64,000 nucleotides of DNA from Leucoraja erinacea (taxonomy: Eukaryota), in assembly GCF_028641065.1 (NCBI RefSeq), contig NC_073402.1, positions 28,396,001-28,460,000 of the forward strand, read 5' to 3'. The notes below the pieces were generated by a model, which saw nothing but the letters and a program-made list of their open reading frames with translations, was not told where the DNA came from and ran no database searches. Position 1 is the first letter of the stretch, and each line of letters starts with the position of its first letter. Below are positions 1-63,327 of the stretch, one piece after another. A program made the position numbers and the translations under genes.

Positions 1-390
1 CCTTTAGAGTGTCTTGTTATGTACAGTATGCTGCTGTGAAGTAGTGGAAGCATCTTGCATTAAATTCTAAAGCTGCCCTGTCACATCATCCTATGTCACT
101 AGCATGCCCATTAAAAATAATTAAAAAGTATTCCACAAAGGTAAAACATTGGATACACCTAGTCGAATAAAGAATCAAAGTGCCCAAACAGATTTCTTGA
201 TGGGCTTTAATTCACCTGGAAATGACAGTAGAGTAATCTAATCCCAGGCACGCGTGTCATATTATGCACACAAACAAGTCAACTCCAACAGATGCAATTT
301 CTGGCTATAAATTTTGTTTGAACAATGTGCATTTAATATGACAACTAGATGACATGTTATTACACAAGTTTCATGCTTAATTTATTTTAC

Positions 391-3300: not shown

Positions 3301-6300
3301 GATGGCCAGCTACTTTTACGTAGGTGCCTGGAGGAACCACAATATTCTCACTTCCAGCTTCCTGCATTAAAACAAACATCAGTGAAAAACAAAGTGAAGC
3401 AGAATATTTTCAAGCAGGCAAGAACAAATATAAACATGAAATAATGGCAATTATAGAGTTTGGAAAAGGGAAAGAAAGTTTATATATTATATCAGTGGTT
3501 AGATGTACCTTGTTATTCAGTCATAGGAATAAAGTTATCATGATTTGGCAGAAATCTAAACATATTAAAAAATGTTTTAGCTTCCAAGTTCTTTAGTTTA
3601 GTTTAGAGGTGCAGTGTAGAAACAGGCATTTCAGCCCACCAAGTCTATGCTGACCTGCGATCATCCATACACTTGTTCTATCCTACACGCTAGAAGCCGA
3701 TTAACCAACAAACCTGCACGGCTTAGGAATGTGGGAGGAAACTGGAGCACTTGGAGAAATCCTACACGGTCACAGGGAGAATATACAAACTTCATACGAC
3801 AGCACCCGTAATCAGGATCGAACCCAGGTCTCTAATGCTGTAAGACAGTAACTCTAACGCTGCGCCACTGTGCCGCCAAAAAAACATTAGGATCTGGAAA
3901 ACCATTCTTCAAATGGCTATACAAAAAAGCTGGAGAAACTCAGCGGGTGCAGCAGCATCTATGGAGCGAAGGAAATAGGCAACGTTTCGGGCCGAAACCC
4001 TTCTTCAGTCTGAGAAGGGTTTCGGCCCGAAACGTTGCCTATTTCCTTCGCTCCATAGATGCTGCTGCACCCGCTGAGTTTCTCCAGCTTTTTTGTGTAA
4101 CCTTCGATTCTCCAGCATCTGCAGTTCCTTCTTAAACACTTCAAATGGCTATGATGGGTGGGTTGCCGTTTGCCAGTTTCACTCAAGTCTTTCAAAATGT
4201 AACTTGAGAATCATCTATCAATGACATCTTTACCAACAATAATAACCATCATGTCAATCAGCCCATGTCCATATTGGTTCGCAGTAGAGATCGCATATCA
4301 TAACAATTCCATTTGTTCACGTTCTGCCCAAGGCCTCACAAATGAGTTCCCCACATATACCCATTCAATTCCCTTTTTAAAAGTGACCGTTTCCACCACA
4401 CGCAGATTACAAATACTCACGTTTAAAAGTTCCCCTTACATCCCTATATCACTTCAAATGTATCATTGACTCGTGAATTGTCAAAGAGAAAAGCTTCTAT
4501 GTACTCCTAAACATTATGATCTTGTACACCACATCAAATTCTTCAACTACTTGTTTTTCACCAACAACGACAAGGTATTCCAATTCATCATTGTATCCAA
4601 AATTCTTCATCCCTGGAATAATTCTAATAAATCTTTCTTGCATACTTCCTAGATTATTCACAATCTGTCCAAAGTATATTGACAATAACTGGAACAATAT
4701 TCTCATCATGGCTTATCCTGTGTATTACAAATGTTCAAAACTTCCCAACTTTTGATCTTTGCTGCTGCATCATTATCTCAGGAAACTAGAGATCTGTTCT
4801 TAGTCTTTTTCTTTCTCGTCAGGAAAGTCATTCAAAAACATAGGTTCACATGCGCACTGATATCTGCCTCACCACTACTCAACATTTCCCATGCCACGGA
4901 CACCCCAACATCACATCAATGGCCAATATTGCAAACCTGAACCATGGGTCCCTCCAAAAACTCAAGTCAATTCAACTCTTATTAGCAACCCTTTCATCGT
5001 CGTGACTATCCCTTGAGGTTGAGGATGACAGTCTACGTTCTGTTGTTTTTATGGACTCTCAGGTGGCTTATGAGTCCAATCCTGGCTTTGAAAGTTCATC
5101 GACATTCAGCACAGCTAATTCCAGATGGCAGATTGGGCTTTGGTTGTTGCTGCCTCTCTTTCCGTTTTCTTCTCTTTTCTTCTAATTCTGCGCATCTCTT
5201 GGCTTCAAAGGTCACAGTTCCTTCTTGGATTTTACACTTCTTGTGTAGGAAGGAACTGCGGATGCTGGTTTAAACCGAAGATACACACAAAATGCTGAAG
5301 TAACTCAGCGGGACAGGCAGCATCTCTGGAGGGAAGGAATGGGTGATGTTTCGGGTCGAGCCCCATCTTCAGAGTGAAGAAGTGTCTCGACCCGAAATGT
5401 AACCCATTCCTTCTCTCGCTGAGTTACTCCAGCATTTTGCGTTTATCTTCACTTTACACTTCTTTGCCCACGATATCATCTTCTAAATGTCCCATTAACC
5501 CATCTCACTGGCAAACCTGACCTCAGCCTATCACATATTCCATTTGTTTGATCAATCCCTTCCATCACCTTTGCTTCAATTTAAAACAACATTTTTTTGT
5601 TCCTTCCCAGTTTTGATAAAAATCTTCTGATCTAAAACATTAACTTTCCAAGAATACTGCCTAATCTGTTGGGCGTTAACTTTGTTTTATATTACCTTTA
5701 CCTGGGGGTTCCTGATTTTTAACTCCCAATGGTGGCCCAGACAGTTTACAACATGGATATTCTAACTCGCCTGAACTCCACATCTGCTGTTTTTCCAACA
5801 GTGCACACTTCTGTCTCAACTGCATCTCAGCTCGCCTGCATCTCAGCTCGCCTGCTGCTGAAATTTTCACTCCTTTTATCTCGATGGCAAGGCACTTTCC
5901 AGACTTTTATAAACCATTAATTTGAACTTCATTCAAAAATGTACAACTTAACCTGCTTAGCATCTGGTCCACACTTCAAATTTGAAAACACAGATTCTAA
6001 AAGCTTGCCAATGTCTTGCCCTACTTACTATGCAACCTCCACCATGCAACCCTTGGGTCTGTGCTCCTCTAAATTTTGCTCAGTCATATCTTCATCCATT
6101 GAATTATTAAGCACTGTAATTCCACTCGTGTTTTTGCTCCTCTGAGATGCACTTTAAAATCCATCCCTTTGAAAAATGCTACGTTCAAAATCTAAGCTAA
6201 ATATCATACTTTTGTTTCATTGTATCTTGAAAGACCGCCAAATGGTTTTTCTTCACTTTAGGTTCCACAAATGAAAATGTGCATGGGTATATGTTAGAAT

Positions 6301-12300: not shown

Positions 12301-15147
12301 CCTTATACACTCGCACAACAGTGTTAGGGTTCGATCTTTCTTTGTTTCAGCCTTGAACTGCGCAAGGCGCTCGTCTGACATGTGTAGGATGGCTTCTACA
12401 GCATGTATCACGTTCGGCAGTGCGGTGTACTCTTCCGCAGGTGTGTTTGCACTGGGCAGCCGGCTCAGGGCATCGGGGACAAACATTTCACGTCCCGGCT
12501 TCCACCGTATTTCCAGGTCGTACCGTAGCAGGTGCATTCGCATGCGTTGGAGCCTGGGGCTTAATTTGTGTAGTGGCTTGGCGAGCAAGCCTACTAATGG
12601 CTTGTGGTCAGTAAGAATTACTGTGCACTGACCAACAATGAAGTCATGAAACTTTCTGCATGCATACAGTATGGAGCACAGCTCCTTCTCTATAGTTGCA
12701 TAGTTGCGCTCGGCCGTGTTCACACGTCGTGATGCGTATGCAACAGGTCTCTCGTCTTGCATCAGGACCGCTCCAAATCCGCTGTTGGAAGCATCTGTGG
12801 CAATTGACACGGGCGCGTTCACATCGTACAATTTGAGTATGGGTGGTGAAGTGAGAAGACATTTCAGCTTGTCTACTGCATGTCTGTGCTTCTGCTCAAA
12901 ATGCCACGCTATTCCCTTTTCTGTTAGCTGTCTAAGTGGGGCGGTGATCTCTGAGAGGTTCGGAATAAACTTAGCCATGTATGTCACCATCCCCAAGAAC
13001 GTTTGCACTTCAGCCTTGTTTGTCGGGTATGGCATTTGTAGCAGCCTTTTGGCTGATTCGCCGATCATATTGTCGGGGACGTGGGCGGCTGTTGGGCGCT
13101 CTATTTAACGGGCAGTCGGGGGATCTGGAAAGATGTCCAATCTCTCCGCAGGTATAACATCTCATGTACTGAGCAGGGCAGTAGTTGCCTTTATGCGCGC
13201 GGGTGCATGACCGGCAGACGGTATCCTTACCAGAATCACGGATTTCTGTCTGTGTTTGGCTGGGTCGCGAATCCCTGCCTCGGCCCCAAGGCCGACTGGT
13301 GCTGTCCCGTTTCACATACTCAACTGTCTCTTCGGTGTCGATGGCGGTTGGGGCAATCTGCTTCATCTGTTCGGCTGCTGCTTCAGCTATCAGACACACG
13401 TCACTGCATTTTTCTAGTGTTAAATCATCGCATTGTAGTAGTTTTTCCCGGAGCGGCTGGCTGGTGATGCCGCAGACAATTCTATCTCGTAGCAATGAGT
13501 CATGGATAATGCCAAACTCACAATCTTTGGCTAAAGACTTCACTGCAGTCAGGTAGCTGGAGAAGGTCTCCCCTCGCCGCTGATTACGTGTATTAAAGAC
13601 ATATCTTGAGACAGTTAAGTTCTTTTTTGGATCACAGTATGTCTGAAACTTATCCTTCAGGGGTTGTATTTTGTCAGTTTCCTCCTGGGTAAACTCAAAG
13701 GTCTCATAAATCTCCTGAGCTGCCGGCCCGGCTACGTGGAGGAATGTTGCACAGCGAATATTATCTGGTTTATTTGTTAGTTCTGTTGCCGCCTCGTACA
13801 GCTGGAATGCCCTTATCCAGTCCTTATAATTCTTGGCCACGTTTCCTTGCATGGAGAGTGGTCCCGGTGGGCTTGAGTCCTGCCATTCTTTTCTTTAGGT
13901 TTTTTTTTTTTACTTTGACACCATGTAATGTTTGAGACCACGTAAGGCCCTGTTGTGACTAGCACAAGCAAAAGGAGAACACGTCCGACATCTTGTAAGT
14001 ATGATTTATTCTGCCCCACCCAGGGACACTGCTCCAAGGTCACCTGCTCTCGATCACGAGGCAAAGCCCTTTATATTAAAGGGGCACAGGCATTTACATA
14101 TTCATCACAACACCTATGTTGTTCTCATACATGCAATTGCAGAGTCCAGTTAGGTAATCAGCCCCAGTATCCCCTCCACCATTTCTGTAATCAAGAGATT
14201 TGTCTTTCTTCCACCCAGGCCAGCATCCCTTCTTTACTCCAGAATGGTTAATTGTCATAAGTACCAAGAACAGAACAATGAAATTCTTATTTGCAGCAAC
14301 ATAACAGGCCAGTAAATGCAATGCACATGGATAATAAACTCCAAACGTGCAAAAAAAAAGCCCAAAAGTGTTTAGTGCAACTAAATACAATCCATAGTTC
14401 AAGTACACATCATGTCATGCTCAGTGGCCTGATTGCTGCCTCAGTTTTTAGATTCCAATACTTTCTTCCTGGAGTGAAATGTGAGCATGACCAGGCTAGT
14501 GTGGGCCTTTAATCACATTGGCTGCTTTTTTTTCTGAAGCAGTTCCTTCCTAAATAATGCATTTTTCACTCTGAATCCCCAGTTCGCTAGATGACTGTGT
14601 GTAGTCATACAGCGTGGAAACAGGCCATTCGGCCCGACTTGTCCACACCGGCCAACATACCCAACTACACGTCCCGCCTTTGGCCCATATCCCTAAACAT
14701 GTCTTACCCATGTACCCGTCTAAAGGTTTCTTAAACGTTGTGATAGTACTAAATCATAAATTAAACTGAACCCATGTGTAGGAAGGAACTGCAGATGCTT
14801 ACACCGAAGATAGACACAAAATGTTGGAATAACTCAGCGGGAGAAGGCAGCATCTCTGGCGAGAAGGAATGGGGGACATTTCTAGTCGAGACCCTTCTTC
14901 AGACTTCACAGCTCAGTGTGAAGAAGGGTCTCGACCCGAAACGTCCCATTCCTTATCTGCAGAGATACTGCCTGGCCCGCTGAGTTACTCCAGCATTTTG
15001 TGTCCATGCTCCACAAAATGCTGGAGTAGAGAGCATGGAAAATGTTAGCACAACACTTTAACGTTGGTAAAGACGGCAGGTCGATTGCGATGAGACAGAC
15101 CCAAGCCGAGCCGGTGTGCCGCACTCACCCGCGCTGTTCCACATCAT
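391..15147 (-). CDS. RPA2: Replication protein A 32 kDa subunit, coding exons 1-7 (3' exons lie left of the window)
   Basis: Exons, all GT-AG and in phase: 15129-15147 (MMWNSA), 10030-10148 (GTFDGGYG...[21 protein letters not shown]), 9455-9556 ([18 protein letters not shown]...ELSQ), 7822-7935 ([38 protein letters not shown]), 3287-3361 ([25 protein letters not shown]), 1133-1243 ([18 protein letters not shown]...), 391-513 (...[10 protein letters not shown]). Total 663 nt = 221 codons; matches the vertebrate RPA32 N-terminal tail and OB fold. Confidence 0.96.
1389..1996 (+). mobile_element. Non-coding GC-rich retroposon with Rex1/Babar-like 3' tail
   Basis: GTGGCGCC head, T-rich tract, GC-rich body, a segment homologous to the 6453-7508 element (TTGCCTTCCATCACA...TGGTGGATGTTTA), and a 3' hairpin followed by TGACAATAAA. 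Confidence 0.55.
2017..2177 (-). mobile_element. CR1 LINE 3' end fragment
   Basis: (TTCTATGT)n tail on the minus strand; same 3' UTR as the CR1 copies at 44240-44412 and 46335-46555. Confidence 0.7.
2169..2252. repeat. 41-bp tandem duplication
   Basis: TCTAACTCAAGAAAAAGGACCTTGAATAATTTACCTATATC at 2169-2209 and 2212-2252. Confidence 0.9.
3592..3877 (-). mobile_element. tRNA-derived V-SINE (HE1-like)
   Basis: Minus strand reads GGCGGCACAGTGGCGCAGCG (A box)...GGTTCGATCC (B box), then a V-domain-like core (TTCTCCCTGTGACC...TTTCCTCCCACA) and a (CTAAA)n tail. Confidence 0.8.
3921..4138. mobile_element. Palindromic Penelope-like pLTR insertion with hammerhead ribozyme core
   Basis: About 88-bp inverted arms centred near 4009; intact core CTGAAGAAGGGTTTCGGCCCGAAACGTT on the minus strand at 3981-4008; 14-bp TSD CTTCAAATGGCTAT (3907-3920 / 4139-4152). 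Confidence 0.8.
5243..5452. mobile_element. Palindromic Penelope-like pLTR insertion (second subfamily), degenerate hammerhead cores
   Basis: Inverted arms centred near 5372; TSD TTTACACTTCTT (5231-5242 / 5453-5464). Confidence 0.75.
6453..7508 (-). mobile_element. About 1.05-kb non-coding GC-rich retroposon with internal minisatellite and Rex1/Babar-like tail
   Basis: Minus strand: GTGGCGGCG head, T-rich tract, GC-rich tandem array, hairpin at 6580-6620, terminal hairpin TTCAGACC-GTAA-GGTCTGAA, then TGACAATAAA and (TCTA)n. Confidence 0.65.
6790..7135. repeat. GC-rich minisatellite, ~18-bp monomer in ~78-bp higher-order units
   Basis: Repeated GCCCCAGCTCCAGG(T/C)CG(A/C)T monomers punctuated every ~78 bp by CCTGCAGTCTCCGC. 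Confidence 0.9.
8070..8670 (+). mobile_element. Old degenerate CR1 ORF2 fragment
   Basis: Decayed CR1 RT motifs (AANV.P, GKMLES, DF..FDKV, WIENWL) with frameshifts. Confidence 0.6.
8888..9334. mobile_element. Tc1/mariner-Tigger-like MITE
   Basis: TIRs CAGGTCCACCA...TGGTGGACCTG; TA on the right flank, TG on the left; GC-rich internal subrepeats (CATAGCCGAC). Confidence 0.6.
10613..10798 (-). repeat. 3' LTR
   Basis: Direct repeat of 13924-14109; TATAAA and AATAAA (10694-10699) on the minus strand. Confidence 0.95.
10978..13068 (-). CDS. Truncated Gypsy pol: RT thumb/connection, RNase H and integrase (no protease, no RT catalytic core)
   Basis: 696-aa ORF with [16 protein letters not shown] (RT thumb), TDAS / IEKEL / TDHKPL / DALSR (RNase H), N..HLG...C..C zinc finger, and VDIF / TDNA / NGQIER (integrase DDE); no YxDD or protease DTG/DSG motif. 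Confidence 0.9.
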   Translation of the reverse strand: MIGESAKRLLQMPYPTNKAEVQTFLGMVTYMAKFIPNLSEITAPLRQLTEKGIAWHFEQKHRHAVDKLKCLLTSPPILKLYDVNAPVSIATDASNSGFGAVLMQDERPVAYASRRVNTAERNYATIEKELCSILYACRKFHDFIVGQCTVILTDHKPLVGLLAKPLHKLSPRLQRMRMHLLRYDLEIRWKPGREMFVPDALSRLPSANTPAEEYTALPNVIHAVEAILHMSDERLAQFKAETKKDRTLTLLCECIRKGWPSNRHDLPSDLTPFHTYHDELVEVDGLVLRENRIVVPQSMRRQMLNALNESHLGVVKLKQRVRNLFAWPGMNAQIEDTVGNCSICQATRKAQASEPLQPHFIPSRPWSKVGVDIFHLDGVDHLLVVDYYSKYPEIAQLIDMTSHSVIREMKGMFARNGIPDLVMTDNARQFVCAEFHRFQDDWEFAHVTSSPIYPQSNGQIERCVQTIKGIMRKAKRSGRDPMYAILEYRNTPLDGTGGYAPSQLLNSRLLRSKLPSPLSLLLPHHVPPMGPQLAIRQEKQAAYFNAKASVEPLPRLEQQQQVWFHAKPTEWQRGRIARENLSPRSYVISTPSGTEFRRNRKDIRPAHEAAEPCPDSTQQTSANTLPQGGTPHPGGASLPNSSELSQAAPQGSVVGESAQSEPSHTRTEQKYDTERVGKTTCTRSGRLSKPPTRLVM
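13010..13886 (-). pseudogene. Gypsy gag with two zinc knuckles and a 1-nt frameshift near its start
   Basis: ORF 13010-13852 ([38 protein letters not shown]). Removing one C after the ATG at 13886 restores [15 protein letters not shown] in frame. Confidence 0.85.
13924..14109 (-). repeat. 5' LTR
   Basis: Direct repeat of 10613-10798; TATAAA at 14070-14075 and AATAAA at 14005-14010 on the minus strand; followed by the PBS. Confidence 0.95.
14775..15005. mobile_element. Palindromic Penelope-like pLTR insertion about 125 bp from RPA2 exon 1
   Basis: Inverted arms; plus-strand core GTGAAGAAGGGTCTCGACCCGAAACGTC at 14918-14945 with C3 mutated to G. Confidence 0.75.
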
Positions 15148-16494: not shown

Positions 16495-16859
16495 TTAGGA
16501 AGGAACTGCAGATGCTGGTTTACATCGGAGACAGACACAAAATGCTGGTGTATCTAGCAAAATGCTGGAGCGTCTATGGGGAGAAGGAATAGGTGACATT
16601 TTCGGGTCGAGACCCTTCTTCAGACTCAGTTTGTAAACCTCCAAGCCAGGAATCAATCTTCGGATGTAGACAAAAAATGCTGGAGAAACTCAGTAGGTGA
16701 GGCAGCATCTATGGAGAGAAGGAATAGGTGACGTTTTGGGTTGAGACCCAAAACGTCGCCTATTCCTTCTCTCCATAGACACTGCCCCACCCGCTGAGTT
16801 TCTCCAGCATTTTTTGTCTACTTTAGATTTTTCCAGCATCTGCAGTTCCTTCTTAAACA
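16495..16859. mobile_element. Two adjacent Penelope-like pLTR copies, the second palindromic
   Basis: 16495-16626 is a minus-strand copy; 16667-16859 is an inverted repeat centred on hammerhead stem II (TTTTGGGTTGAGACCCAAAA). Confidence 0.7.
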
Positions 16860-24100: not shown

Positions 24101-27100
24101 ACTGCCAATCACCCCCCCCGGACACTCCTCCCACAGGAAAAACACTATGACTGTATGCATGTAAATAGATTTATTTATTGAAATCAATAAATGTCGCTCT
24201 TCCAGGGAGATGCTAACTGCATTTCGTTGTCTCTCTACTGTATACTGACAATGACAATTAAAGTTGAATCTGAATCTGAATCTGAATCTTTTGATTGGCT
24301 TTAGGAGCTTTCTACACTGAGAAGCTGCTGAATCGAACAGACCAGCGTGTTATTGTCTTAAACACAAATCTGTACTACACCAGCAATAAGCTTCATCCTG
24401 GACTCCATGATCCCGCTGGTCAGCTCCAATGGCTTGATGAAATACTTTCAAAGGCAATAGCATCAAAAGAAAAAGTAAGTCATAGCTAATGTTTTGTTTC
24501 TGAGTTCAAATACCAAAGTGAATTATCTGTGTTTAAATGAATGAGTTGTCTCTTTAGCTCTCTTTCCTTTATTTTTTTTTAATCAAATCAAAATTAGTTA
24601 TAAGGTCATGGTTAGTAATTTTGCCATAATGCGAGAGATCTCTAAAGGAATCTTATGGGAGGGTGGGTGTGGCAGCAGTTCGATTTTTCCAGCATCTGCA
24701 GTTCTTTCTTAAGCAGTATATTTTCAAGTCAGATTGGTGTGTGACTTGGAAGGCAATCCATAGATGATGGTGTTCCCATGTGCATGTTGCCCTTGTCCTT
24801 CTTAGTGATGGAGTGCCAGGTCTGTGTGATTCTGTTGATGGCTTAGGCAAATGATTACAGTGCATTTTGTAGATGGTACACATTGTAATAGGTGCTGGAG
24901 GGAATAAATGTTTAAGATGGTGGATGATGTTCCAATTAAGTGTTCAATGGTGTCATATTTCTTTCGTGCTGTTGGAGCTGCACTCATCCAGGCAAATTCG
25001 GAGTATTCCATCAGGCACTTAAGTTCTGCTTGTGGGGGCTGGACATACTTTGGGGTGTCAGAAGTCGAGTCACTCACTGCAAGATAGCTGCAGTACCAAT
25101 GTAGATGATCTGCATGAGTTTCACTACACTGCGCGTTACTTGGGCAATGGGGCCAAACGTCCATGCACAAATGTTTGAATGCACGACACACTTTTTTAGT
25201 GTGATGAGGGCATTAGGTACCAGTCAGGGAAAGGAATAGTGGGATCCTGAAATCTTCCTAGGCTGACTATGACAGTTCCAGCATTGCCACAACTAAGAAC
25301 GTCCGACTCATCAATGTGTTTCACAGGGGAAAACGGTATTCCGAGCATTTTCTATGTTGTGTTTGAGGTTTTGAGTGTCAGCAGAATTTTGCCTGGGTAA
25401 AGCTCAGCAAAGATGGTTTAATAGGATCCTCAGGGGCAGAGCAAGTTTATTTTGAGCCAATTTCCTCATATTCCAGGGACCTGGGTGATGTCTGTGTGTG
25501 ATTAGCATATTCTCTTCAAGATCACATTGATTCCCTTCAGGTGCTTGGTTTTATCTCGCATCTCAAGATGTGCTGGTAGTCAGTTGTCTAAATACAGATA
25601 AAACCTTATTGTAGTCCTTTATTCTGTCCTGGGCCTCCTCCATTGTCAGAGTGAAGCCCAGTGCAAATTAGAGGAACAGCACCTCATATTTCACTTGGGT
25701 AGTTTACACCCCAGCGGTATGAACATTAACTTCAGATAGCCCTTGCTTTCTCTCTCCATCACCTCCCCTTTCCACTTCCCCCACTAGAATACTGTCTCCA
25801 ACCATTCTATCTTTGTCCCGTCCCCTCCCCTGAGATCAGTCTGAAGAAGGGTCTTGACCCGAAATGTCACCCATTCCGTCTCTCCAGAGATGCTGCCTGT
25901 CCCGCTGAGTTACTCCAGCATTTTGTGTCTACCTTCGATTTAAACCAGCACCTGTAGATCTTTCCTGTACAAACTGTATTGTAGGTTATTCCTAAAAATA
26001 ATCAAAATTATGTTGAAGGGCATGAATGAGAGAAAGTTGCAGGAAATAAGGAGATCGGCTTTTGGAAATTGGTGTGATTTGAATGGACTCATTCTTTGTC
26101 ATTATGAGTATAACCTGTTAAACTACATATGAAATGGTAATGTTATTGAGACCAGCTGAATATTATCCATATGTTCTCTACATATAGGTTTATATTATTG
26201 GTCATATACCACCAGGCTTTTTTGAAAAGAGGAGAGGAGTATCCTGGTTTCAAGAGGACTTCAATGAAAGATACATCAAAATTGTTCAAAAGTATCACAG
26301 TGTGATAGCTGGTCAGTTCTTTGGACATCACCATACTGACAGCTTCAGGATGTTCTATAGCAATTCAGGTAGTGAAATGTATATTTGTATCCCTTTCTTT
26401 CCTATAAACAGGTACCAGAATCAATTGATTAACACATACTAATTGATCAGGTTTAATATTTAAAATGTTTAAGAAGGAACTGCAGATGCTGGAATATCGA
26501 AGGTACACAAAAATGCTGGAGAAACTCAGCGGGTGCAGCAGCATCTATGGAGCGAAGGAAATAGGCAACGTTTCGGGCCGAAACCCTTCTTCAGACTGAT
26601 GGGGGGTGGGGGGCGGGGAGAAGAAAGGAAAAAGGAGGAGGAGGAGCCTGAGGGCTGATGGAGAGATAGGAAGGGGAGGAGACAGCAAGGGCTAACAAAA
26701 TTGGGAGAATTCAATGTTCATGCCCCCAAGATGCAGACTCCTAAAATGTTCTACAATGCCATTCAGCAAAGGATCAAGAATGGAGAATTCGGAGAAGTAA
26801 AGACCCAGATGATAAGATGTTTTTTTGAGACAGTTCATACAGAATGATGTCAATGGTGTTCAGGGAGAACATTCCAAAGACTATAAACTTTGCCACTAGT
26901 AGTACGACAATGGAAATGAGGTGGGGAGGTTTGGTGATGCAGAGGTTAAGGGGGAGTGGGGAGGCCAGAGCTGCATAGTAAAGGACCTTGCTATTGAGAA
27001 TATAGGAAACTACAGCTGTAAAGGAGTTTCAGAGATAGTAGTGAAAACATGTACATGCGTGAAGAGGAGTATAAGGAAAGGAGCAACGAGTAAAGGTTAA

Positions 27101-28341: not shown

Positions 28342-30270
28342 TTTTAATTTTTTTTTTCCAGCAATACATATATTCACCTGAATAAGGATTATAAGAATGG
28401 TTGCCAACCAGCATAAGGGAAAACTAGCTTGTGGTAAAGCAATGGTATGGCCTATAAAGTAAGAAGGGATTACCAAAGGGATTTAGACAAATCATGAAAC
28501 TGGCCATCTAGTTCTCATCATTTGAACATCGTCAGTCTCCTGGATGTGCCTCAGGATTTTAGCTGCAAGTAAAGGATCAAAATCATTCTGATGATTCAGG
28601 AGAAATTGTCAAATGCTTAAGTCACCAATCACCTTATTGTCAATGTTACTTGGATTCTCTTTATTGTATCTTTTTTTAAAAACCTGATGTACACCATGAT
28701 GATATGGACACTAATTTCAACAGATTTTTTATTAAAAATTCTTTGATACTTCTTTTTGGTTTGTCGTGAATTGGATGAACAAAACAATTATATACACACA
28801 GCATGGTCAATTGGACCTATAAGCTAGAGACTGTGCCAACAATCAAACAACCATTTTCACTGATCTCATTTGATCCTTCTTACCTTACCTCCAAGTCTCT
28901 CCAAATTCCATCATTCACTTAAACTCAATGGTGCAATATACAGTGGCCAATTAATATACCAACTTGTACACCCTTGGGGTGTGTGAGGAAAACAGAACGT
29001 CTGGATGAATCCCACATATTCACAGGGAGAATACACAAAATCCATGCAGGCAGCACCGGAGATCAGGAATGAACCCAGGTTCGCAGAGCTGTGAAGCAGT
29101 GGATCTAGTAGTTATGCTACTATAGTTTACAGCTGATAGATGAGCTAATGAAAGAGAACCTGCACAGATTTATCAGAGATAACCCATGTATGACCACCAA
29201 ATGAATTTTGTGGGGTCAAGGAAAGAGCGTTCTCATCGCGACCCTGTTTCCACCAATCTTTCCACCGCTATGCACAAAAAGCACAAGACACCATTGTACG
29301 CAGATGTCGAGCTCTGGCTGAACGATTTTTAATCTTGTGATGTCTCGACAAGAAGAATTGAATTTTGTGATAATGGCTTTGCAGTAAATGATGTCTACAT
29401 TGGAAGTGCTTTATACAGTTAGATATAGATTCACACAAAAGTAAGGGGAAAGTTGCAAATCAAGGCCGCCACAGAAAATACAAAGCAAAATAAGAGAAGT
29501 GCACAATGTACAGAAAGGGACCAAGAAAAGAGTAGTAGGACATAGTGAAAAAGTTGATCCTGAGGTTCCTCTTAAATCTTTCCCCTCACACCTTAAGCCT
29601 GTGTCCTCTAGTTTTTAGAACCATCTGCCCTAAGAATAGGACAGTGAGCATTCACTTTATCCTTGTTTAATGCCCCCCCCTCCCCTCCCCTCTCTCTCTG
29701 TCATAGTAAAGGGTATTAATTATCATGGAAAGTTGCAACCAATTCATTGAAGGGTGGGGTAACATCCTTCCTTTCAACAACTGTGTGTACCAAACGGGAA
29801 ACATTAATTTGTACTCCAACCGCAGGCAGCAATGTGTAGGGGGTGGGGTGAGTTTTAGAAGAATTCCATTGCTCTGTCTTTGAGCCGTTCGATTGAGAAC
29901 ATCATTGGAAAAACCCTGAACTAGCGAGTTAAGAGATAAATGTGGCATTAAAAGTCACTGAGACTCCGAGCAAGAGGTTTCTCATTAGGCGAGGCAAAGA
30001 ACACTAGAGGGTGCCACTGAAGGGAGCACTGGCGATGTGTCCACTCTTGCCTGCTTGTGCGTTTTCTCTATAAATATTATACAATTAAAAGAGGGAAGTT
30101 CCTTGAAGACCACAGAGAGTAAAGTTAGACAAAATGTAGTGCGGGGCGGGGGGGGGGGACAAAAGTGAGCAGCAACGACGCAAAAACCAACCAACGTGTG
30201 CTGGGGAGGAGCAAATGTTTCAAAGAGAAGTGAGGGACCAGCGGCAACGTAAACTTTTTCCAGCACAAAG

Positions 30271-42062: not shown

Positions 42063-63327
<21,265 letters not shown>

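Follow-up and report, generated by a model that had tools for sequence, protein, structure and literature searches.

Miniature head-to-head pLTR insertions of a Neptune-type Penelope-like element in Leucoraja erinacea, with 5′ ends concentrated at the front edge of a predicted hammerhead motif

The closest described counterpart of the insertions considered here is Pen2a of Adineta, in which an inverted, 5′-truncated copy lies beside a forward copy, a tail of 30–40 bp is present at one end only, a TSD encloses the product, and overlap and short palindromes occur at the 5′ junction (PMC3846280; overview in PMC8557442). A second counterpart is PAc, a Poseidon element of Anolis, whose purified protein nicks and extends both target strands and uses two adjacent internal RT start sites that delimit the tail; a dimer is predicted, hammerhead cleavage proved dispensable in vitro, and RNA ends mapping to the cut site were not observed in Anolis (PMC11167929). 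Minimal hammerhead ribozymes (min-HHRs) of metazoan Penelope-like elements (PLEs) share with our motif the core, an extra base before helix II, the G10.1–C11.1 pair and a loopless palindromic helix III, and in Schistosoma dual min-HHRs lie 100–700 bp apart on opposite strands (PMC4209133). Non-LTR retrozymes, finally, are similar in being non-autonomous, derived from a pLTR and equipped with a type I hammerhead (bioRxiv 10.64898/2026.07.22.740005).

The stretch analysed here, hereafter the window, comprises 64,000 nt of contig NC_073402.1 of the L. erinacea assembly GCF_028641065.1 (positions 28,396,001 to 28,460,000). Its positions 3921–4138 consist of two pLTR ends of a Neptune-type Penelope element, joined head-to-head and enclosed by a 14-bp TSD, the two copies of which (3907..3920 and 4139..4152, + strand) are identical. 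Throughout, C3 of the hammerhead CUGA core is numbered 0, which puts the predicted cut between +27 and +28, and arms are called tail-less when their 3′ ends lie near +93 and tailed when these lie near +128. Specifically, the tail-less arm, of subfamily A, occupies 3921..4013 on the minus strand (element position ~+90 to −5) with its minimal hammerhead motif at 4008–3981 (minus strand), and the tail-bearing arm occupies 4005..4138 on the plus strand (−5 to +128), with a motif at 4010–4036 (+) whose core is short by one base and a tail at ~4103–4138. The arms have in common a 9-nt near-palindrome, TCAG-W-CTGA, at 4005..4013, whose centre base, 4009, lies one base upstream of the CUGA core and places the axis at −1. 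A transcript of 3921–4138 folds computationally into a single long helix of −176 kcal/mol. An empty-site check, as proposed in the initial annotation, succeeded for this insertion: one contig each from the public runs X18, X19 and X20 joins 3906 to 4139 with one TSD copy, those from X18 and X19 differing from the window at 2–3 positions per 390 flank bases; run X23 had no coverage of the flanks. Very similar chromosomes in three runs thus lack the insertion, which makes such insertions usable as markers.

All six sites (6/6) that the initial annotation had listed as head-to-head inverted pLTR arms proved to be such pairs. The other five are 5243..5452 (subfamily B; axis −1; exact 12-bp TSD at 5231–5242/5453–5464), 14775..15007 (arm ends −3 and −5, short spacer, axis ~−4; a TSD of at least 9 bp was sought and none found), 16667..16859 (both arms at +8; axis in the stem II loop, +13.5; duplication matching at 8/9 only, under the TSD threshold), 47176/47177..47364 (subfamily A; both arms starting at +10, axis +17; 13-bp TSD with one mismatch) and the asymmetric 52358/52359..52521 (arms +20 and +34; 4-nt microhomology; 11-bp duplication with two mismatches). 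With the finder used here, the TSDs ascribed to several of the six were clear in three, weak in one and absent in two. The axis, described as lying in or next to the motif at a slightly different base each time, is at or inside the motif in 5/6, but is the same (−1) at 3921 and 5243. An older pair missing from that list lies at 53422..53574 (13-bp duplication). Within one 14-bp duplication at 44748..45059 there are three arms, two inverted and one forward, in an order that begins with an inverted arm reaching −5, returns to ~+95 for another inverted arm and finishes with the forward one, which suggests re-initiation on the same target end. The window also contains single copies with 5′ ends at −3, namely a non-inverted, TSD-flanked one at 48455..48553 (−) and others at 16496–16626 and 52648–52752.

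Longer copies in the window connect the arms to a coding element, extending upstream into the C-terminus of a GIY-YIG region. One of subfamily A (26464..26731, −) runs past the hammerhead into the 3′ UTR and the endonuclease end, and one of subfamily B (62295..62656, −), which includes the GIY-YIG region's C-terminal end, is resembled by copies at 25622–25972 (+), 42261–42404 (+) and 53746–54008 (−). At two loci elsewhere in the genome, copies continuous with arm sequence match RVT_1 (L119; E 6e-7) and GIY-YIG (L151; E 1e-4), and L119 carries a C-x4-C-x2-C linker upstream of its GIY-YIG region; a CX2-5CxxC linker between RT and EN marks Neptune/Nematis elements (PMC8557442). L119 is also a near-full-length example of the Pen2a type of product: its forward end is tail-less, its inverted copy is tailed and 660 nt long, and its TSD measures 12 bp. 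Having pLTRs at both ends, partial tandems, an inverted copy and a one-sided tail, the parent is, as judged from its sequence, an EN+ PLE, of Neptune type by its linker, and the statement that inverted pLTRs are a PLE insertion product is borne out. The pLTR and tail were joined directly to the ORF start in 17 of the best 30 matches to the ORF 5′ region, with a candidate ATG ~35 nt past the tail. These 17 copies begin at −2, +2, −6, −9 and −11 (five copies), +28 (one), +52 to +81 (five) and −63 or further (six).

With respect to the hammerhead, a minimal type I core is present, comprising CUGANGA, GAAA and UH, an extra base after position 9, G10.1–C11.1 and a palindromic helix III. The motif letters form the majority in all four subfamilies, with percentages biased high by rows aligned to the reference. 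Helix II has 4 bp in every subfamily, showing a one-sided U–A to U–G change and no double change, and helix I has 2 bp only (U–A or U–G, and G–C) in place of 4–5 bp; the motif differs in these helices from the min-HHRs of PMC4209133, but a D. virilis variant in that paper likewise has a 2-bp helix I. An Rfam search of the window gave no hammerhead match at E up to 1, and isolated regions had no unusual fold stability (z 0.42, 1.26 and −1.13). We speak here of a predicted min-HHR. The miRNA matches in the same search were dismissed as a mere effect of long hairpins, and a CPEB3/HDV-like match at 29200–29263 (+) fell below threshold (29.4 bits, gathering 35; E 9e-4), with no second copy in 1.62 Mb.

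Building from the window, we counted arms in 156 stretches of 10 kb, positioned irrespective of content, which together with the window amount to 1.624 Mb; loci fetched by homology were excluded from the counts. Arms were found by BLAST with four subfamily references and paired when within 40 nt, a procedure that misses arms shorter than ~25 nt and in which ends are blurred by microhomology. The sample contained 719 arms, forming 128 head-to-head pairs, 9 tail-to-tail pairs, 29 direct adjacent pairs and 463 single copies. A classification as non-LTR retrozymes was rejected for this sample, as these are not head-to-tail units with a full hammerhead. At ~79 per Mb, or ~170,000 by extrapolation, head-to-head pairs are a large source of 150–230-bp near-perfect hairpins. 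TSDs were found at 50 of the 128 pairs as compared to 2/300 mismatched-flank controls, with lengths of 9–20 bp (41/50 within 12–17 bp). Among isolated single copies with a 3′ end, a TSD was detectable in 34/340, and age, target deletion and missed short arms are candidate reasons for the lower rate. One stretch, L135 (G000:C36:5,000,001-5,010,000), held 23 arms in 10 kb, among them four A-type palindromes with repeated 33-nt copies of +7..+40 by the junction, a pattern of stuttering RT or of local spread; similar tandem runs, of +20..+86, occur in L094 and L156.

The two arms of a pair are not equivalent. One was tailed and the other tail-less in 82/93 classifiable pairs (35 were unclassifiable), the tail being 35 nt long, and the asymmetry held in 82/88 pairs without five amplified copies described below and in 45/45 classifiable pairs with a TSD. 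Single copies divide into 168 tailed and 171 tail-less. The longer arm was the tailed one in 31 pairs and the tail-less one in 31, with 20 equal, and because either arm may be longer, the arms are better read as two separately primed cDNAs than as a self-fold-back. Self-fold-back requires that the cDNA be the arm extending further upstream, and it cannot supply a tail that this cDNA does not have; a longer tail-less arm with a tailed partner (31/82) is not a product expected of it, contrary to the fold-back origin initially suggested. In terms of their 5′ ends, tailed and tail-less arms showed no difference (30 versus 27 of 82 ending no later than position 0; p 0.45), such as a model assigning one arm to each pLTR would predict. 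Short arms may have short partners more often than chance would give, as hinted by three structures with both arms long against ~three with one long arm. Arms of subfamily A were partnered with A in 56/59 cases (23% expected), and distances were smaller within pairs than between them in both A (0.073 versus 0.106; within lower in 17/20 pairs) and B (0.136 versus 0.157; 28/38). The arms within a pair have a single source, and later homogenisation of the arms could contribute to their similarity.

Junctions between the arms comprised 40 with overlap, 30 blunt and 58 with filler of at least 3 nt. Where junctions are symmetric, they fall on short inverted repeats, namely TCAG-W-CTGA at −1 and stem II at +13.5 (one window case), and a 7-bp repeat at +10..+24 of subfamily A, which corresponds to no hammerhead helix, gave a +17 axis in 5/28 A pairs and 0/51 B pairs (p 0.004). 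Symmetric junctions thus track short DNA inverted repeats, whether or not these are ribozyme helices. Among local −1-axis pairs, the centre base came from the tailed arm in five and from the other arm in three, and could be assigned to neither in five.

The 5′ ends of arms and single copies fall along a common cliff at −5..0, with a mode at −2/−3. Palindrome arms ended at or before 0 in 96 cases, at +1..7 in 31, at +8..19 in 50, at +20..30 in 23 and at +31..60 in 42 (n=242), and single copies in 119, 41, 24, 11 and 55 cases, respectively (n=250, 60 upstream-continuing copies removed). Neither distribution is uniform (p 3e-20 and 1e-14), and each has its maximum at the front edge of the motif; an early peak at +40 was a subfamily-mismatch artefact that disappeared with four references. 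The expectation that breakpoints would be unevenly distributed along the element therefore held, with 200/242 arm ends at or before +30, and so did enrichment at the hammerhead, but the latter is not specific to inversions, single copies being alike in this respect (195/250). In favour of the initial annotation, ends inside the motif (+8..+30) were commoner among arms (73/242) than among single copies (35/250; p 2e-5). Its attribution of the pattern to the ribozyme fold was nonetheless not supported, as the peak lies upstream of the core, where the whole motif has already been copied, and no excess occurs at the predicted cut: +27..+29 holds 3 single-copy and 4 arm ends (7 of ~510, a small sample, and a count that does not measure cleavage activity). 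Two copies start exactly at +28, the ORF-joined L190 and the single, TSD-flanked L123:8037, which are too few to show cleavage.

Genome-wide counts gave a consistent picture. The young subfamily-A core (0..+24) has 24,385 exact matches, in which the first upstream mismatch falls at −1 in 2,218, −2 in 1,956, −3 in 4,156, −4 in 2,584, −5 in 1,369 and −6 in 1,774, with 10,328 matching through −6. Corrected for a background mismatch of 3.2% (37/1,151 sites in 21 sampled copies), ~51.5% of young copies continue past this edge and ~48.5% terminate in the 6 nt that precede the CUGA core, the −5 and −6 classes possibly being inflated by sequence variants at those bases. Isolated single copies starting at −5..0 against unique flank made up 108/340, and 22/34 of those with a TSD. 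Ends further upstream were scattered from −51 to −2714 with no cluster among the 40 traceable of 211 arms reaching −3 or beyond; the long references lack some subtypes, and 67/129 single copies were grouped as extended. The exact symmetric 35-nt junction with the −1 axis has only 349 copies genome-wide, from which it follows that most edge ends are not fold-backs.

Taken together, these observations lead us to read the pairs as miniature inverted-pLTR insertions of the Neptune-type element, made of twin-primed short cDNAs that run off the RNA start just before the hammerhead, a reading to which we give a probability of roughly 0.6. Both cut target strands would each prime a short cDNA on element RNA, anew at every site, and both cDNAs would run off the RNA start and then be joined there. 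The element RNA probably holds the pLTR twice. Priming in the upstream pLTR would leave 95–130 nt to the RNA 5′ end and yield a run-off stub, and priming in the downstream pLTR would yield read-through (about half); if the two pLTRs of such an RNA were primed equally often, half the copies should stop and half read through, as observed. The cDNA ends may be joined via a nearby short inverted repeat (−1, +17 or +13.5), bluntly or with filler, and an end joined to the target instead would give a single stub. The axis would then lie near the ribozyme because the ribozyme forms the first 30 nt of the template.

A template RNA starting at ~−3, in an initiator-like TCAGTCT, is likely on sequence grounds. 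TCAGTCT at −5..+1 is kept in all subfamilies while upstream sequence diverges, and it fits the initiator consensus, YYANWYY. An RNA start at the edge also agrees with the 5/17 ORF-joined copies that begin at −11..+2, but two of these five begin at −9 and −11, 6/17 extend far upstream, the edge covers ~6 nt instead of a single position, and the arms have their twofold excess of ends inside the motif. A cap-derived G is weakly hinted at −3, found in 44/100 of the first listed −2 copies (p 0.002 against 30%, 0.04 against 35%), and not at −4 (31/100). Poly(A) reads from run X24, which carries another organism label, showed no pile of molecule starts in the 6% of the run covered, a signal that embedded stubs swamp; strands were equal over the stub region and no splice joint was supported. 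An internal TATA-less promoter is reported for Penelope (PMC2377424) and Inr-like motifs for Adineta pLTRs (PMC3846280). Points that weigh against our reading are the D. virilis RNA start, which lies ~120 nt upstream (PMC2377424, PMC4209133), and the low rate of TSDs among single copies (34/340).

We tentatively go further, at somewhat less than even odds, in proposing that the stubs, numbering hundreds of thousands, are run-off cDNAs that map the RNA start of a vertebrate Penelope, to a few bases, onto an initiator fused to the hammerhead front, the RNA being copied uncut, from either pLTR about equally, by a dimer that primes on both target strands. If so, the entire insertion cycle would be documented in the genome by these stubs, and the upstream run-off product would be a candidate for the intermediate from which the pLTR is rebuilt. 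As regards how Penelope builds its inverted ends and what its hammerhead does, the counts name the bases at which RNA would start, predict two primings per insertion and imply that hammerhead cleavage leaves little trace in the copies.

Of the alternatives, the best placed, although unlikely, is that a folded hammerhead, possibly protein-bound or dimeric, makes RT pause or switch template, after which the cDNA folds back on itself. It would account for the doubled frequency of ends at +8..+30 in palindromes relative to single copies, for the 15/123 pairs that are symmetric with at least 8 nt of overlap, and for a modal end (−2) that is the first base of helix I; moreover, the lizard hammerhead is protein-assisted (PMC11167929), and a bound complex could stop RT at the edge. 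At the peak, however, RT has already left all the helices behind, roughly half of the young copies extend past the edge, single copies show the same peak, and the +17 axis involves no ribozyme helix. Ordinary fold stability in the isolated regions and the 31 pairs in which a longer tail-less arm faces a tailed partner also weigh against it.

Less probable still is that the edge is a 3′ splice site, with a pyrimidine tract and CAG at −4..−2, and that the template of RT is either a splicing intermediate or a spliced RNA whose first exon is tiny. All subfamilies do have a long pyrimidine-rich stretch with CAG-T at its end, and the 5′ end of helix I is where the intron of D. virilis ends (PMC2377424, PMC4209133). 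The stubs, however, have no common upstream exon, visible TSDs abut or overlap their first bases, three older-type copies have CGG instead of CAG, and no GT–AG joint into −1 occurs among the 15 of 95 joints listed.

We consider it very improbable that the insertions began as longer palindromes whose centres were subsequently deleted through slippage across an extruded hairpin, the junctions being products of DNA repair. In the −1-axis A palindrome, the 15-nt near-palindrome at +10..+24 forms a direct repeat flanking the centre, and a single deletion between these repeats gives the +17-axis class (four identical junctions on different variants), but this accounts neither for the single copies with ends at −5..0 nor for the numerous asymmetric junctions that contain filler (58/128).

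Amplification of a single master palindrome, or of a few, in the manner of a MITE or SINE has a negligible chance of explaining the class as a whole, as there are 112 junction types among the 128 pairs and still 112 among the 123 that remain without five cargo copies, TSD length varies, the centre base comes from either arm, and identical junctions (+10/+10) carry differing variants in both arms, even if the −1 axis recurs (349 exact 35-mers) and amplification did occur in a minority. A MITE class was rejected on the same absence of a uniform junction or length, together with TSDs that are not short or fixed and asymmetric ends with a one-sided tail. Most head-to-head pairs, then, are independent insertion events, as initially proposed, apart from 5/128 that represent one amplified palindrome in another element. 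These five (L013, L033, L077, L086 and partly L250) are one tail-less/tail-less palindrome with common flanks, and they account for 5/11 exact −1-axis junctions and 5/10 tail-less/tail-less pairs. Their carrier is a 630–690-bp TIR element, exemplified by L013:329-1030 (G000:C3, ~20,000,330–20,001,030); its 4–5 copies in 1.62 Mb suggest several thousand per genome, and its TIRs and A/T-rich target may ally it with T2/Kolobok-type MITEs. Its TIRs resemble those of a 359-bp element at window positions 50869–51227, which has 76-nt arms with inner inverted repeats, is unrelated to the pLTR and is present as a single copy in the window.

In LINE-1 twin priming, both target strands prime cDNA and the inverted product, within a TSD, is joined by microhomology. 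L1, however, inverts different parts of one RNA, whereas in the present pairs both arms are copies of one segment, made from two fixed starts. Compared with Adineta Pen2a, both copies are only 60–130 nt long and their 5′ ends are piled at the hammerhead front edge. PAc belongs to the Poseidon clade and has an ORF that begins in stem II, whereas the present element has a Neptune-type linker and its candidate ATG beyond the tail; the text of PMC11167929 has no treatment of palindromic stubs, and its figures, such as Fig. S2 on genomic coverage, may already show the 5′ edge. Clustering of ends at the front edge of a PLE hammerhead was not found in searches of the open literature. In contrast to the dual min-HHRs of Schistosoma, the two motifs of a palindrome directly adjoin and would be enclosed within a single long hairpin, and in contrast to the head-to-tail arrays of non-LTR retrozymes, the copies are head-to-head pairs or single stubs. 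Inverted pLTRs, the one-sided tail, the TSD and opposite-strand hammerhead pairs are already in print, and the palindromes are not a new class of element defined by a ribozyme. The observation itself is real, and it is well explained as a miniature of this known product, with one testable inference.
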